DNA of 56,837 nt from NCBI GenBank assembly GCA_035560935.1, contig DATMYQ010000069.1:1-56837 (forward strand), written 5' to 3'. This stretch comes from Patescibacteria group bacterium. GTDB taxonomy: Bacteria; Bacillota; Negativicutes; Sporomusales; Sporomusaceae. Below are positions 35,248-48,710 of the stretch, in pieces (position 1 is the first letter of the stretch; each line of letters opens with the position of its first letter). A program made the translations under genes and the position numbers. Under the pieces are notes generated by a model. The model was given only the letters and a program-made list of their open reading frames with translations, did no database searches and had not been told where the DNA came from.

Positions 35248-36711
35248 TTGGCCAATGCATTTGAGACCTGGGGGAAGAAATACGGATTATTGCTGGCGAT
35301 ATTGACCGGGGTAGCTGTATGGCTGCTGCCGACGCCGGCGGGCATGACCCTAACCCAGCATAAACTGCTGTCCATTTTTAGCGGCGCTGTGGTGGCCTGG
35401 ATTACCATCGGGATAAATTTTGCCGTCAGTACCTTTGCCATTATTGTACTTTTATATTTCTGGGTGGGGAATCCGGAAGGAAAAATGAATAAAGTCGGGG
35501 AATTGATCCGCAATGCCGATTTCGCGGTGGGCGGCTTTGCGTCTTCGTCTCTGTGGCTGCTGGTGACCGGCTTTGTTATTTCCATTGCCATGACCAAGTC
35601 CGGCGTGGCCCGTAGATTGGCGTTGCACATGATGCGAATTCTGGGGAAAACGCCGGCGGGAGCGATATTTGCCTCGATGCTGGCCAACTTTGTCATTGCA
35701 CCGCTGACTCCCTCCAACACCGCCCGGGCGGCGGCCATGCTGCCGGTTTTGGAAGGAATCGCTGCCGCTTATCGCGCGGAACCGGGAAAAAGCAATTTTG
35801 GCAGGGCGCTGTTTTTAACATCCACCTTTACCACCAACATCACCGGTGCGGCTTTTTTGACCGGTACCATACCCAATCCGGTGGCCGTGGGCATGATCGC
35901 CGCCGCCGCCGGCGCGTCAGTGATGACCACCTGGAGTTATTGGGCGATGGCGGCGCTGCCGACCAATATCATCATTCTGATTGCCGCCGGCTGGCTGACG
36001 CTGAAAATGTATCCGCCGGAAGTCAAAGCCTTGCCGGGCGGTATCGGCTATATCCGGAAAGAACTGGACGCCATGGGGCCGATGAGCCGGCGGGAAATGA
36101 AATCTATCGGTTATTTTGTCCTGGCGCTGGCGTTATGGTCCACCGATGCTCTGCACCATCTGAATTCCACCATGATTGCCTTTCTGGTTTCCCTGCTAAT
36201 TTTTTTACCCCGGGTGGGCGTGTTGGAGTGGAAAGAGACGGAAAAGTCGCTGCCCTGGGAATTATTCGTTTATTTCGGCGGCGTTTTGACGCTGAGCAAT
36301 GCGCTGATGAGCACTAAAGCGTTTGAATGGCTGATCAAAACGACGCTGACCGGACTGGGCCTCGATGGTATGGCCATGATGCCGCTGCTGATCCTGCTGA
36401 TCGGCTTCAGTATCTTTAGTCATGTGATCTGGTCTACGACCACCGCCATGGCTGGGGTGATGATCCCCATTTATATTGGCCTGGCGCAGGCGCTGGGCTT
36501 TAACGTGGTGGGATTTGTGCTGCCGCTGGCCATCATGATGGCGTATGCCCTGTTTTTACCCTTTAACACCATGGGAAATATTATCATGTTCGGCGCCGGT
36601 TATTATACGGTGGCGGAACAGATTCGATCCTCTTTGCTGCTGGGATTGATCGTCTGGATTTTGTGGGTTGTCACTGCCTTTACCTGGTGGAAGGTGATCG
36701 GCCTGCTGTAA
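35248..36711 (+). CDS. DASS/SLC13-family anion (di/tricarboxylate) permease
   Basis: A 487-aa polytopic protein. The general layout and N-terminus '...LPTPAGMTLTQHKLLSIF...' fit DASS/anion-permease families. TTG start. Confidence 0.7.
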   Translation: MANAFETWGKKYGLLLAILTGVAVWLLPTPAGMTLTQHKLLSIFSGAVVAWITIGINFAVSTFAIIVLLYFWVGNPEGKMNKVGELIRNADFAVGGFASSSLWLLVTGFVISIAMTKSGVARRLALHMMRILGKTPAGAIFASMLANFVIAPLTPSNTARAAAMLPVLEGIAAAYRAEPGKSNFGRALFLTSTFTTNITGAAFLTGTIPNPVAVGMIAAAAGASVMTTWSYWAMAALPTNIIILIAAGWLTLKMYPPEVKALPGGIGYIRKELDAMGPMSRREMKSIGYFVLALALWSTDALHHLNSTMIAFLVSLLIFLPRVGVLEWKETEKSLPWELFVYFGGVLTLSNALMSTKAFEWLIKTTLTGLGLDGMAMMPLLILLIGFSIFSHVIWSTTTAMAGVMIPIYIGLAQALGFNVVGFVLPLAIMMAYALFLPFNTMGNIIMFGAGYYTVAEQIRSSLLLGLIVWILWVVTAFTWWKVIGLL

Positions 36712-36748
36712 TCCCGGAATCAATAAACGAAGCGGAGGAGATGGAATC

Positions 36749-46042: not shown

Positions 46043-47325
46043 TGGAGTCATCAAAAGAAGCGTGGCAGCAACAACTGGTCAAGTGCATTCGCTGCGGCAC
46101 CTGCCGCTCGGTTTGCCCGGTATTTCAGGCGGTGGACAATGAAAACACCACGGCCCGGGGAAAAGTGAAAATGATTGAGGCGGTTAGTGAGGGAAAACTG
46201 GAACTGACGCCGGAGTTACAGGAAAGAATGGGAAAATGTCTGTTGTGCAAAGCCTGCGCCACCGGCTGTCCCTCCGGAGTAAAAACCGACGAGCTGTTTT
46301 TAAGCGCCCGGCAGGCCCTGGTAGAGAAAAACGGTTTGCCGCTGCTGAAAAAACTAGCTTTTACCGGATTAACCTATCGGAAGCTTTTCGATACCGGCCT
46401 GCGTCTGGGTGCCGTCTTCCAGGATATAATGTTTAAAGATGCCCCGGGCGGGAGGGGAAAACAGGCGCGCTTTCCGTTACCGGGTGCCGGGCTGAACGCG
46501 CGCCGGATTATTCCGCCGCTGGCCCCAACGCCGCTGCGGCGTCAGCTGCCGGCCATAAATCCGGTGGAAAAGCCCCAGGCCCGGGTGGCGTTTTTTGCCG
46601 GCTGTATGCTGAACTATATTTATCCGCAGGCCGGTCGGGCCATTGTCGATCTTTTGCGGATCAACGGCGTGGAGGTGGTGATTCCTCCCGGACAGTGCTG
46701 TTGCGGCACGCCGGCGTTTACCTCCGGTGATTACGAAACCGGACGCTATCTGGCGGCAAAAAATATTGAGGCGCTGGAACCGGGCGGTTATGACGCGGTC
46801 ATCACCGGTTGCGCCTCCTGTGGTGCCGCCCTGAAACACGAGTACGGGCAGATTCTGGAGGACGGTCTGCTGAAAGACCGCTGGCGGAAACTAACGGAAA
46901 AAGTGTTTGACATATCTCAGTTTCTGGTGAAACTGGATTATCGCCGCCACCTTCGTTCCCTGCCGTTGAAAGTGACTTACCATGATCCCTGCCATCTGGT
47001 GCGCGGGATGAATGTGGCGAAAGAACCGCGGGAATTGTTGAAAGCCGTCCCCGGTCTGGAATTTTTGGAAATGAAGGACGCCAATCGCTGCTGCGGCGCC
47101 GGTGGTACTTTCAGCATGGTGTACTATGACCTGTCGCGTCAGATCAATGATCAGAAGCTGGACAACGCCGCCGCGACAGGAGCGGCGGTGCTTGCGACAG
47201 GGTGCTCGGCCTGCCGGATGCATATTAACGATGGATTGCAGCAACGGGGCGGTTCCCTGCAGGTGATGCATACCGCCGAATTGCTGGCGCAGGCCTGCGG
47301 CATTCCCCAGGAGGTGGTCAAATGA
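46042..47325 (+). CDS. Fe-S oxidoreductase subunit, GlcF-like (2x[4Fe-4S] + 2 CCG domains)
   Basis: CIRCGTCRSVCP and CLLCKACATGCP, plus the CCG motifs 'GQCCCGTP' and 'NRCCGAGG'. Confidence 0.85.
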   Translation: MESSKEAWQQQLVKCIRCGTCRSVCPVFQAVDNENTTARGKVKMIEAVSEGKLELTPELQERMGKCLLCKACATGCPSGVKTDELFLSARQALVEKNGLPLLKKLAFTGLTYRKLFDTGLRLGAVFQDIMFKDAPGGRGKQARFPLPGAGLNARRIIPPLAPTPLRRQLPAINPVEKPQARVAFFAGCMLNYIYPQAGRAIVDLLRINGVEVVIPPGQCCCGTPAFTSGDYETGRYLAAKNIEALEPGGYDAVITGCASCGAALKHEYGQILEDGLLKDRWRKLTEKVFDISQFLVKLDYRRHLRSLPLKVTYHDPCHLVRGMNVAKEPRELLKAVPGLEFLEMKDANRCCGAGGTFSMVYYDLSRQINDQKLDNAAATGAAVLATGCSACRMHINDGLQQRGGSLQVMHTAELLAQACGIPQEVVK

Positions 47326-48710
47326 AGCAGAATACAGCATTGGTTGCCGCGTTGCGGCAGGCGGTGGGAGACAATTTTGTGCTGGACCGGCTGGAAGACC
47401 GGATTTGTTATTCCTTCGACGCCACCTTCAAAGACGGGTTGCCGGACGTAGTGGTGAAACCGGCTTCCTCCGCTGAAGTGGCGGCAGTGGTCAAAATTGC
47501 CAATGACTATGGCGTTCCGGTCACCCCCCGGGGCGCAGCCACCGGCCTTTCCGGAGGGGCGGTACCGCTGCAGGGCGGAATTTCCCTGGTACTGACCCGG
47601 TTGAATCAGATTATTCGCATTGACGCGGCGAACCGGGTGGCGGTGGTGGAAACCGGGGTGGTTACCGAGAATCTGGTTAACGCCGTAAACCGGGCCGGTC
47701 TTTTTTATCCGCCGGATCCGGCCAGCGCCAAGACTTCGACGATCGGCGGCAACATCGCCGAATGCGCCGGCGGTCCCCGGGGCGTTAAGTACGGCATCAC
47801 CCGGGATTATGTACTGGGCCTGGAAGTGGTACTGCCCAACGGGGAGATTATCCATACCGGCAATGGGGTTGACAGCGAAATGGCCGGTCCCGACTGGACC
47901 ATGCTGCTGGTGGGATCGGAAGGAACTCTGGGCATTGTCACCAAAATTTGGCTGCGACTGGTGGAAAAGCCGGCCGCCAAGCAAACGCTGCTGAGTATTT
48001 TCAGCAGCATTGACGACGCCGCCACCACCGTCAGCAAACTGATGGCCTCGGGAACCATCCCCACCACGCTGGAAATCATGGATAACCTGACGATCCGGGC
48101 AGTGGAGGAATACTTGCACATCGGTCTGCCGGTGACGGCGGAAGCTATTTTGCTGATTGAAGTGGACGGCTCAGCGGCGGCGGTGGCGAAACAGTCACTC
48201 CATGTGGCCGAGGTTTGCCGGCAATGCGGCGCCGGTGACGTGAAAATTGCCGCCACCCCGGAAGAAATGGAGCAGCTTTGGAAAGCGCGGCGGGCCATTT
48301 CTCCCGCCTGCGGCAAGATCAACCCCACCAAAATTTCTGAGGACGCCACGGTACCCCGCAGCCAGATCCCGGCCATGGTGCGCAAAGTGAAGGAAATTGC
48401 CGATAAACACCGCCTAAAAATGGTGATTTTTGGCCATGCCGGCGACGGCAATCTGCATCCCAACATTTTGACCAACAAACATGACACCGCGGAAATGGAA
48501 CGCGTGGACGCCGCTGTGGCCGAGCTGTTCCGGGCGGCGCTGGAACTGGGGGGCACGCTGTCGGGAGAGCATGGCATCGGATACATGAAAGCACCGTTTC
48601 TAAAATGGGAAACGGGCGAAACCGGCTTTGACGCCGGGAAAAAGGTGAAAGCGGCGGTGGATCCGGATGGCCTGATGAATCCGGGCAAGCTGTTTGACGT
48701 GCAGCAATAA
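47322..48710 (+). CDS. FAD-linked 2-hydroxyacid oxidase/dehydrogenase, GlcD family
   Basis: 'VVVKPASSAEVAAVVKIANDYGVPVTPRGAATGLSGG' and the C-terminal 'GTLSGEHGIGYMK'. Confidence 0.88.
   Translation: MKQNTALVAALRQAVGDNFVLDRLEDRICYSFDATFKDGLPDVVVKPASSAEVAAVVKIANDYGVPVTPRGAATGLSGGAVPLQGGISLVLTRLNQIIRIDAANRVAVVETGVVTENLVNAVNRAGLFYPPDPASAKTSTIGGNIAECAGGPRGVKYGITRDYVLGLEVVLPNGEIIHTGNGVDSEMAGPDWTMLLVGSEGTLGIVTKIWLRLVEKPAAKQTLLSIFSSIDDAATTVSKLMASGTIPTTLEIMDNLTIRAVEEYLHIGLPVTAEAILLIEVDGSAAAVAKQSLHVAEVCRQCGAGDVKIAATPEEMEQLWKARRAISPACGKINPTKISEDATVPRSQIPAMVRKVKEIADKHRLKMVIFGHAGDGNLHPNILTNKHDTAEMERVDAAVAELFRAALELGGTLSGEHGIGYMKAPFLKWETGETGFDAGKKVKAAVDPDGLMNPGKLFDVQQ

Follow-up and report, generated by a model that had tools for sequence, protein, structure and literature searches.

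Ten plus-strand genes at positions 35248-48710 of the stretch analysed here (contig DATMYQ010000069.1 of assembly GCA_035560935.1, 56,837 nucleotides; hereafter the window) encode, in order, a DASS-family carboxylate permease (DASS1), a protein distantly related to the lactate racemase LarA, two LytS/LytR sensor kinase and response regulator pairs, a second permease (DASS2), and GlcE-like, GlcF-like and GlcD-like subunits of a flavin adenine dinucleotide (FAD)-dependent D-2-hydroxyacid dehydrogenase. This order and domain content, given in a preliminary description of the window, agree with the open reading frames and with the Pfam and NCBIfam matches. We consider it probable that the locus mediates the substrate-inducible uptake and oxidation of both enantiomers of a 2-hydroxy-carboxylic acid, most likely a dicarboxylate, with 2-hydroxyglutarate as the favoured candidate. 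The outline of the route put forward in the preliminary description, namely uptake, racemization and oxidation of a 2-hydroxyacid under LytS/LytTR control, gains support from conserved active-site residues, from the presence of larBCE in the genome and from gene linkage across phyla, while its dicarboxylate substrate is favoured only. The genome consists of 389 contigs, is 93% complete and is apparently a metagenome bin; the metagenome is of freshwater sediment. Among named homologs the closest come from Sporomusaceae, and Sporomusa is one of the relatives.

The LarA-like protein had been labelled DUF2088, a label that does not stand by Pfam's own threshold: against Lar_N (DUF2088, PF09861) it scores 19.8 bits, below the cut-off of 23.3, and hmmscan at E<0.001 returned nothing in Pfam save a weak DUF362 match. 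It does pass the NCBIfam model NF052515, 'nickel pincer cofactor-dependent isomerase, group 22', with 487.6 bits against a cut-off of 400. Because paralogs at 35-50% identity, two further ones of the same genome among them, likewise pass (457-545 bits), this model spans several subfamilies and fixes no single function; it probably covers several substrate specificities, judging by the divergence of its members. In this order the family shows a strong expansion: three group-22 copies occur in this genome (the others at C22:1585-2826 and C174:2145-3374) and up to eight in a single relative (G001-G039); the copies are mutually 35-50% identical and all pass this same 'equivalog' model. One search for group-22 LarA-like relatives returned more than 4,700.

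Searches of PDB sequences with the single protein (phmmer) and with a 33-sequence profile (hmmsearch) gave no true LarA match, and the kinship was consequently shown by hhalign and by fold search. Alignment to the eight LarA paralogs of the genome (seven canonical, one divergent) had an hhalign probability of 99.7% and placed His84, His149, Lys162 and His178 on LarA positions 108, 174, 184 and 200 (His, His, Lys and His); the template paralog is a clear homolog of the malate racemase Mar2 (3e-67) and of lactate racemase 5HUQ (7e-45). In Lactiplantibacillus plantarum LarA, residues 108 and 174 are the catalytic histidines, 184 the cofactor-tethering lysine and 200 the nickel-binding histidine. 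All four residues are invariant in 33/33 homologs of the window protein (59-78% identity). When an AlphaFold2 (AF2) model (mean predicted local distance difference test score, pLDDT, 87.2) was compared with the PDB using Foldseek, the top 19 matches were all LarA-family structures, with E values of 2e-10 to 1e-6, a template modelling (TM) score of ~0.5 and 10-17% identity to the solved LarAs. Model and alignments together place the protein in the LarA superfamily, with the two-domain LarA fold and its four cofactor-binding and catalytic residues, and it is predicted to be a 2-hydroxyacid racemase or epimerase.

No larB, larC or larE lies in the window, as had been noted before. The genome search that the preliminary description proposed recovered all three elsewhere: in a profile search larB (303 bits) adjoins larC (495 bits) on contig C120, and larE (314 bits) is on C304. 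The racemase was to be given up if residues for the nickel-pincer nucleotide (NPN) were missing and the genome was devoid of larBCE; what we find is that the residues align and are invariant and that larBCE is present. LarC occurs in 38/41 genomes of relatives, and its co-occurrence was dropped as a discriminating profile for being near-universal.

The remoteness of the protein leaves room for another chemistry, in which NPN or some other cofactor would support a non-racemase reaction (net redox of a 2-oxo/2-hydroxyacid, or epimerization of a polyhydroxy acid) and GlcDEF and the transporters would serve that pathway. The distance from LarA is so large that hidden Markov model (HMM) searches of PDB sequences find none, Pfam scores place the protein between DUF362 and DUF2088, and group 22 is an expanded family, with up to 8 paralogs per genome, most of them in other contexts; the reaction is unclear for some known LarA homologs (PMC12611868), and NPN supports intermolecular hydride transfer on another scaffold (PMC13524815). 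The aldo-keto reductase (AKR)-type NPN enzymes of the latter study were considered as kin of the window protein and are unrelated to it. Two observations make such a reaction quite unlikely in our judgement: the two-base histidines, the lysine tether and the nickel-binding histidine are all invariant, and the gene is steadily paired with D-specific FAD dehydrogenases, as predicted for a racemase that feeds a stereospecific enzyme.

This pairing emerged from a scan of one genome per species, which gave 64 loci comprising 44 orthologs (at least 51% identity) and 20 more distant paralogs. A GlcD-like gene lies within 6 kb in 19/44 ortholog loci as against 1/20 paralog loci, and a GlcF-like gene in 18/44 and 0/20. 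A DASS1-type gene directly adjoins the LarA-like gene in 11/44 and 0/20, a DASS2-type gene in 1/44 and 0/20, and TctC/TctA are found within 6 kb in 6/44 and 0/20, so that a DASS or Tct carboxylate transporter is near the gene in 18/44 ortholog loci; the lactate permease LctP is near it in none. A Kor-type 2-oxoacid:ferredoxin oxidoreductase lies within 9.5 kb in 10/44 and 1/20, LytS lies within 7.5 kb in 5/44 and 0/20, and at least one partner gene is present in 27/44 ortholog loci. All loci with Tct belong to Desulfovibrionaceae, those with the oxidoreductase come from Pelosinus, Sporomusa, Nitrospiraceae, deltaproteobacterial metagenome-assembled genomes (MAGs; one Syntrophobacteraceae) and a Negativicutes MAG, and LytS/LytTR is confined among ortholog loci to Negativicutes. 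The linkage of transporter, dehydrogenase and oxidoreductase genes spans Negativicutes, Desulfovibrionaceae, Syntrophobacterales and further deltaproteobacterial MAGs, as well as one Nitrospiraceae MAG. What recurs from phylum to phylum is this LarA subfamily together with a carboxylate transporter, a 2-oxoacid oxidoreductase and an FAD dehydrogenase specific for the D form; LytS/LytTR is a lineage-specific addition to that theme.

In 11 public loci a DASS1 ortholog (57-82% identity) immediately precedes the LarA-like gene. In Sporomusa rhizae and Sporomusa malonica (L055 and L058) the locus comprises GlcE-F-D, DASS1, the LarA-like gene, four oxidoreductase subunits, a methyl-accepting chemotaxis protein and LytS-LytR, with GlcF and GlcD 68-76% and DASS1 77-79% identical to the window proteins; in S. 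malonica, DASS2 (77%) follows LytS-LytR. Two genomes of another family (G030 and G024) and the metagenome contig L049 have LytS-LytR, DASS1 (82%), the LarA-like gene and a single GlcD-like gene, and a Selenomonadales MAG (G036) has LytS-LytR, DASS2 (79%), the LarA-like gene, GlcD and GlcF. DASS2 orthologs (77-79%) therefore follow LytS-LytR in two relatives. The chemotaxis protein of both Sporomusa loci is of the dCache type and stands between the oxidoreductase and LytS, which suggests chemotaxis towards the substrate of the locus.

The two permeases score above the TIGR00785 cut-off of 198.6 bits (270.6 and 264.4) and are 31% identical to each other. The closest PDB sequences of DASS1 are the chloroplast 2-oxoglutarate/malate transporter DiT1 (7e-34) and the exchanger LaINDY (2e-32), followed by VcINDY (9e-20); those of DASS2 are the Na+ symporter VcINDY (~1e-35), LaINDY (1e-25) and DiT1 (4e-20). 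The DASS family holds both cotransporters and exchangers (PMC7553777), and by these matches DASS1 resembles the exchangers and DASS2 the Na+ symporters, in different branches of the family. A reading of their SNT motifs (PSNTAR and PFNTMGN against PSITAR and PVSNMPN) was dropped as ambiguous. Carriers of the DASS and Tct types point to di- or tricarboxylates.

The dehydrogenase subunits all miss their equivalog cut-offs (GlcD 494.7 against 567.9 bits, GlcE 68.6 against 284, GlcF 182.6 against 333). The metal-site motif GHAGDGNLH of the GlcD-like protein reads GQIGEGKLH in the GlcE-like subunit, which is devoid of the first metal-binding histidine and is probably non-catalytic. The GlcD-like protein keeps the catalytic Arg, His and His residues for metal and substrate, and its closest PDB sequences are glycolate oxidase (9qgz) and the D-lactate dehydrogenase LctD (7qh2). 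In human D-2-hydroxyglutarate dehydrogenase (D-2-HGDH), Thr390, Lys401, Tyr432 and Asn443 hold the far carboxylate, and hydrophobic or small residues replace them in D-lactate dehydrogenase and GlcD (PMC7801405). At these positions the window protein has Ser327, Ser339, Phe370 and Asn381, with Lys336 reported two residues before the Lys401 column. Mouse LDHD, glycolate oxidase 9qgz and LctD carry Trp, Tyr and Leu, respectively, for Thr390 and Ile, Leu and Tyr for Asn443. The GlcD beside a canonical LarA on contig C41 and its close paralog on C2 have Leu for Thr390, Thr or Val for Lys401, and Thr for Asn443. Every GlcD adjoining the group-22 LarA-like gene, in three clades, has Ser, Asn, Thr or Ala for Thr390, Lys or Arg at the Lys401 column or two residues before it, and Asn or Ser for Asn443; the single-subunit partners (G030, G024, L049 and Pelosinus) have Ala or Ser, Lys in the exact column, Ala for Tyr432, and Asn. 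Pocket residues of this kind favour substrates whose far end is polar or anionic.

These observations bear on the main rival explanation, in which lactate, or else a different small monocarboxylic 2-hydroxyacid (glycolate or glycerate, for example), serves as substrate, with the DASS proteins acting as unusual monocarboxylate carriers and the LytS kinases sensing pyruvate in the manner of BtsS and YpdA. On that view, an established design that combines lactate racemase, FAD-dependent D-lactate dehydrogenase and pyruvate:ferredoxin oxidoreductase would recur here in modified form. Carriers of the LarA-like locus include Sporomusa, Pelosinus and Desulfovibrionaceae, which are classic lactate users. 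The nearest solved structures of the GlcD-like protein, glycolate oxidase and LctD, agree with such a substrate, the single-subunit GlcD-like protein of G030 is closest to LctD (2e-99), and clusters of a racemase, a D-lactate dehydrogenase that depends on flavin and not on NAD (D-iLDH) and a permease are established for lactate (PMC8914356). What speaks for a dicarboxylate instead is that 18 loci have a transporter of the DASS or Tct type and none has LctP, that the pocket, hydrophobic in LDHD, LctD, glycolate oxidase and the C41/C2 paralogs, is polar in all LarA-like-linked GlcD proteins, that the single-subunit partners carry the far-carboxylate-binding lysine of D-2-HGDH, and that the genome appears provided for lactate elsewhere. 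The cluster at C41:1008-5053, likely one for a lactate racemase and a D-lactate dehydrogenase, consists of a canonical LarA (Lar_N 227 bits) and, after it, a GlcD-like and a GlcF-like gene with hydrophobic pocket residues; in all, the genome has seven canonical LarA paralogs, and two LctP permeases lie away from the window locus. On balance we hold a lactate-type substrate to be unlikely. A dicarboxylate, to which both the transporter types and the pocket of GlcD point, is somewhat the better supported expectation; 2-hydroxyglutarate specifically is a tentative choice, with malate, tartrate, citramalate and 2-hydroxyadipate as alternatives.

The conserved Kor-type oxidoreductase fits a 2-oxoacid product, of which 2-oxoglutarate would be the natural one. 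Such an operon begins downstream of the locus, at 54153, and is cut by the window end (54153-56837); its alpha and beta subunits are 61-68% and its gamma subunit 55% identical to the in-locus enzyme of S. rhizae and S. malonica, and the alpha subunit scores 532 bits against NF006412 (cut-off 411). It is possibly the next step of the pathway, a link drawn by analogy with synteny elsewhere. A second candidate is encoded on the minus strand at C310:12993-19707, where a DASS permease that shares 31% identity with each of the window permeases is followed by a family-III CoA-transferase-like gene, a 3-hydroxy-3-methylglutaryl (HMG)-CoA-lyase-like gene and a four-subunit Kor-type oxidoreductase; this oxidoreductase matches the in-locus enzyme of Sporomusa as closely as the window copy does. 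The second locus has the look of a CoA-dependent route of the citramalate, malate or HMG type. Its lyase would be expected to yield pyruvate, which counts in favour of lactate.

LytS1 and LytS2 are 52% identical over 565 aa and LytR1 and LytR2 42%, in keeping with their description as paralogous pairs, and kinase and regulator genes do overlap in each pair, as had been reported. The LytR1 ATG at 39729, behind a GGGAGG ribosome-binding site, overlaps LytS1 (stop at 39752-39754) by 26 nt, or by 20 nt if the alternative ATG at 39735 is used, and the LytS2 stop (42354-42356) overlaps the LytR2 GTG at 42353 (GTGA). All kinase (5TM-Lyt, GAF, His_kinase, HATPase) and regulator (REC, LytTR) domains exceed their Pfam cut-offs in both pairs, and the two regulators fall below the equivalog cut-offs for BtsR (146.5 and 162.9 bits; cut-off 246) and LytR (143.9 and 152.5 bits; cut-off 375). 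Both kinases keep the equivalents of BtsS Arg72, Arg99 and His382; in BtsS the two arginines hold the carboxylate and carbonyl of pyruvate, and the histidine is the one phosphorylated (PMC10653868). Positions 110/113 are Cys/Ser in BtsS, Ser/Ala in LytS1 and Ala/Ser in LytS2. The pocket residues fit small carboxylate ligands of differing specificity. The characterized LytS-type ligand sensors all bind pyruvate (PMC10653868), which together with the retention of both arginines is a further point for lactate. LytS2 has an extra arginine in the otherwise conserved membrane segment GGLLGG(R)MVG and a glutamate in YTAEAAV, neither of which occurs in LytS1, BtsS or other locus-linked kinases; they are possible determinants of a different ligand.

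A maximum-likelihood tree unites ten locus-linked LytS kinases in one clade (100/100), apart from the three other LytS kinases of the genome. LytS2 groups with locus-linked kinases of Pelosinus and Selenomonadales (94/96), and LytS1 lies outside this group in the basal polytomy of the clade; by pairwise identity its nearest counterparts are the kinases that in other loci immediately precede DASS1 and the LarA-like gene, which are 60% identical to LytS1 and 53% to LytS2. The identity and phylogeny checks that were to date the duplication thus give no recent tandem duplication: the pairs are of different sub-lineages and occur singly in other genera, and among the loci examined only the window has two in one locus. 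Since the kinases are of different sub-lineages and each is associated with a DASS of a different subfamily, the window reads as two joined modules, one of DASS1, the LarA-like gene and LytS1R1, the other of LytS2R2, DASS2 and GlcEFD, rather than as a demonstrated high/low-affinity network for one ligand.

The layout of transcription signals (Table 1) likely divides the locus into three units. DASS1 and the LarA-like gene are 37 nt apart and the LarA-like gene and LytS1 9 nt apart, with no terminator between them; the hairpin directly after LytR2 is the sole strong plus-strand terminator within the locus, and GTTACA-17-TATAAT before the GlcE-like gene is its best promoter-like site. From these short gaps, the terminator and the promoter-like site, a first unit would comprise DASS1, the LarA-like gene, LytS1 and LytR1 and perhaps continue into LytS2-LytR2; DASS2 would form another, and GlcE-F-D a third, possibly with read-through from DASS2. 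A division into at least three units is what one would also expect if the genes were mere neighbours, the LytS/LytTR systems regulating only the adjacent permeases (for succinate or malate uptake, for example) with the LarA-like gene and GlcEFD as passengers, and LytS/LytR is indeed present in 5/44 ortholog loci only. Yet the short, terminator-free gaps, the recurrence of the same families together in varied orders across phyla, and the separation of the locus-linked kinases from the other LytS of the genome make such an accidental assembly very improbable compared with a functional one.

Two perfect 9-bp copies of GATTTGTGC with a 19-bp period lie at 43193-43220, 22 nt upstream of a TATAAT (43243-43248), and this paired pattern occurs once in the window against 0.01 occurrences expected by chance. 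From its position and arrangement, the direct repeat is a reasonable candidate for the LytR2 operator. A third exact GATTTGTGC is found at 36512-36520, inside the 3' end of DASS1 and ~230 nt upstream of the LarA-like start, and a copy with one mismatch, GATTTTTGC, at 35073-35081 in the DASS1 upstream region. The Pelosinus LarA-like gene is preceded by a similar TTTTGGC-N14-TTTTGCC pair with a 21-bp period, 20 nt before TATAAT; no pair of this kind is present in the promoter region of the oxidoreductase operon at 54153. An attempt to footprint LytTR operators phylogenetically was given up: T-rich TTTTG-type repeats do recur at periods of 19-21 bp, but terminator tails confound them and their sequence is not conserved, and the one before DASS2 is the sole statistically notable case.

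Table 1. Genes and candidate signals in and around the locus (window coordinates).
Feature	Position	Strand	Basis or remark
Hairpin and T-run after tctC	35020..35075	+	inverted repeat, 20-nt arms, 85% complementary
DASS1, DASS-family carboxylate permease, exchanger-like subfamily	35248..36711	+	TIGR00785 270.6 bits
LarA-like gene, 419 aa	36749..38008	+	NCBIfam NF052515
LytS1, LytS/BtsS-type sensor kinase	38018..39754	+	5TM-5TMR_LYT, GAF, His_kinase, HATPase_c
LytR1 response regulator	39729..40481	+	REC and LytTR (Pfam)
LytS2, LytS-type sensor kinase	40641..42356	+	same Pfam domain set as LytS1
LytR2 response regulator	42353..43123	+	REC and LytTR
Intrinsic-terminator-like hairpin and T8, directly after LytR2	43132..43158	+	
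Candidate LytTR operator, two GATTTGTGC copies	43193..43220	+	in front of DASS2
DASS2, DASS-family permease, Na+-symporter-like subfamily	43276..44688	+	TIGR00785 264.4 bits
Sigma-70-like promoter match GTTACA-17-TATAAT before GlcE-like gene	44760..44788	+	consensus match only
GlcE-like FAD-binding subunit	44804..46042	+	FAD_binding_4 and weak FAD-oxidase_C match
GlcF-like Fe-S subunit	46042..47325	+	Fer4, two [4Fe-4S] motifs, two CCG domains
GlcD-like FAD-dependent D-2-hydroxyacid dehydrogenase, catalytic subunit	47322..48710	+	Pfam, NCBIfam
Kor-type 2-oxoacid:ferredoxin oxidoreductase operon, four subunits, cut by window end	54153..56837	+	

Directly upstream of DASS1, at 31908-34956, is a TctB-TctA-TctC transporter, and the hairpin after tctC is predicted to separate this operon from DASS1. 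Four Desulfovibrionaceae MAGs (L080, L082, L089 and L090) have a TctC-TctA pair immediately before GlcD, GlcF and a group-22 LarA-like gene, and because of this linkage the closeness of Tct and DASS1 in the window may be non-accidental. At the other end, two overlapping minus-strand genes (48822-49562 and 49559-50869; 246 and 436 aa) lie convergent to the GlcD-like gene at its end, with a shared bidirectional hairpin at 48727-48764; neither product has a Pfam or NCBIfam match.

In the pathway that we propose, DASS1 would import the acid, perhaps in exchange for a product dicarboxylate, and DASS2 would provide a second, energetically different, Na+-symporter-like entry. The group-22 LarA-like enzyme would carry NPN on Lys162 and use His84 and His149 for a proton-coupled hydride transfer that interconverts the two enantiomers, L and D. 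The GlcD-like subunit would oxidize the D form to the 2-oxoacid, with electrons passing through the GlcE-like subunit and the GlcF-like Fe-S (CCG) subunit to an acceptor, and the Kor-type oxidoreductase (from 54153 onwards, or its C310 twin) would convert the 2-oxoacid to an acyl-CoA. Each of the two LytS/LytTR systems may sense a small carboxylate in its membrane domain, where both BtsS-type arginines are kept; LytR1 would activate the DASS1-LarA-LytS1R1 operon, and LytR2 would act at the direct repeat of GATTTGTGC to activate DASS2 and possibly GlcEFD as well.

Several observations weigh against this proposal. In overall sequence, glycolate oxidase and LctD (1e-85) are closer to the GlcD-like protein than D-2-HGDH is (2e-50), and the window protein has Ser, not Lys, at the exact Lys401 column. 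The window oxidoreductase lies 5.4 kb from the locus behind an opposite-strand block, and its beta subunit reaches 325 bits against the 2-oxoglutarate equivalog cut-off of 364; nor is a Kor-type enzyme diagnostic of 2-oxoglutarate, because the C310 twin follows a CoA-transferase and an HMG-CoA-lyase-like gene. For both reasons its use as a pointer to 2-oxoglutarate is weakened. Seventeen of the 44 ortholog loci have no partner gene at all, many of them on short contigs, and the repeat sequence before DASS2 is not conserved in orthologous DASS2 promoters. A search for expression evidence found the sequence only in DNA metagenome runs of freshwater sediment, and the literature searches found no published assay of any group-22 member. 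Against these points we set the active-site residues, larBCE, the cross-phylum linkage and the pocket residues, and the logic of the pathway seems to us probably right.

A broader reading is possible, though doubtful: the DASS- and Tct-linked group-22 subfamily may mark a widespread, undescribed anaerobic route by which both enantiomers of a 2-hydroxy-dicarboxylate, 2-hydroxyglutarate for instance, reach an acyl-CoA by way of an NPN racemase, a GlcD/F-type D-dehydrogenase and a Kor-type oxidoreductase, with these LytS kinases the first non-pyruvate LytS-type receptors and the two diverged receptors gating DASS carriers of different mechanism, an exchanger and a Na+ symporter. If 2-hydroxyglutarate or a similar acid is indeed the substrate, strict anaerobes of sediments and guts would use both enantiomers with a single D-specific dehydrogenase. 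Group 22 is a numerous family, and gene context narrows the candidate substrates for one of its subfamilies; a racemase here would extend nickel-pincer enzymology to a branch beyond the reach of sequence searches against known structures. The paired variation of the two LytS proteins at pocket positions mapped in BtsS would be useful for understanding and re-engineering LytS-type receptors. The module is tractable, as Sporomusa malonica DSM 5090 and Sporomusa rhizae DSM 16652 carry it, and the dCache chemoreceptor of their loci could be a second handle for ligand identification.

The closest precedent is the lct cluster of Acetobacterium woodii and Anaerobutyricum soehngenii (PMC8914356), which by the same logic combines a LarA-type racemase with a permease and with an FAD dehydrogenase specific for the D form. 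That inducible cluster encodes the permease LctE, the D-iLDH LctD, the electron-transferring flavoprotein (ETF) LctBC and the lactate racemase LctF, which is needed for use of the L form (PMC8914356). The window differs in having DASS carriers (Tct elsewhere) rather than LctP, a three-subunit GlcE/F/D dehydrogenase, whose Fe-S subunit is of the CCG type, in place of an ETF complex, LytS/LytTR regulators rather than the LutR-type LctA, and a racemase of a different, far more divergent family, with pocket residues that argue against lactate. The BtsS/BtsR and YpdA/YpdB systems of Escherichia coli, which sense pyruvate and induce the transporters btsT and yhjX (PMC10653868, PMC5552118), have the same kinase and regulator architecture as the window pairs; they too are two paralogous systems in one genome, each beside or upstream of a carboxylate transporter gene, and the direct-repeat candidate operator adds to this likeness. 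By contrast, the window pairs stand in tandem in one locus and their presumed targets are DASS rather than CstA-family or major facilitator superfamily (MFS) transporters; our literature searches turned up no description of LytS/LytTR control over DASS carriers, nor of group-22 enzymes. The dehydrogenase shares with E. coli GlcDEF its three-subunit set of two FAD_binding_4 proteins and a CCG Fe-S protein, and differs in its E-F-D order and in the sub-threshold equivalog scores of all subunits. With D-2-HGDH (PMC7801405; cf. the E. coli YdiJ fusion) its GlcD shares part of the distal pocket, with Ser for Thr390 and the equivalent of Asn443.

Within the LarA superfamily, known members include the lactate racemase LarA, the malate racemases Mar1 and Mar2 and the 2-hydroxyglutarate racemases LarAH7 and LarAH32 (PMC7583248, PMC11770544). 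The window protein shares with them the predicted LarA fold and the equivalents of His108, His174, Lys184 and His200, and linkage to COG0277/COG0247-type dehydrogenases, known for several LarAH groups (PMC7583248), is also frequent here. It is far more divergent, sub-threshold in Pfam Lar_N and near DUF362, sequences of which served as the outgroup in the tree of a 2024 study of the superfamily; unlike this group-22 protein, the known 2-hydroxyglutarate and malate racemases sit in canonical DUF2088 branches. Taken together, the locus departs from known systems in four respects: a deeply divergent racemase family, DASS carriers, a three-subunit CCG dehydrogenase and tandem sensors.

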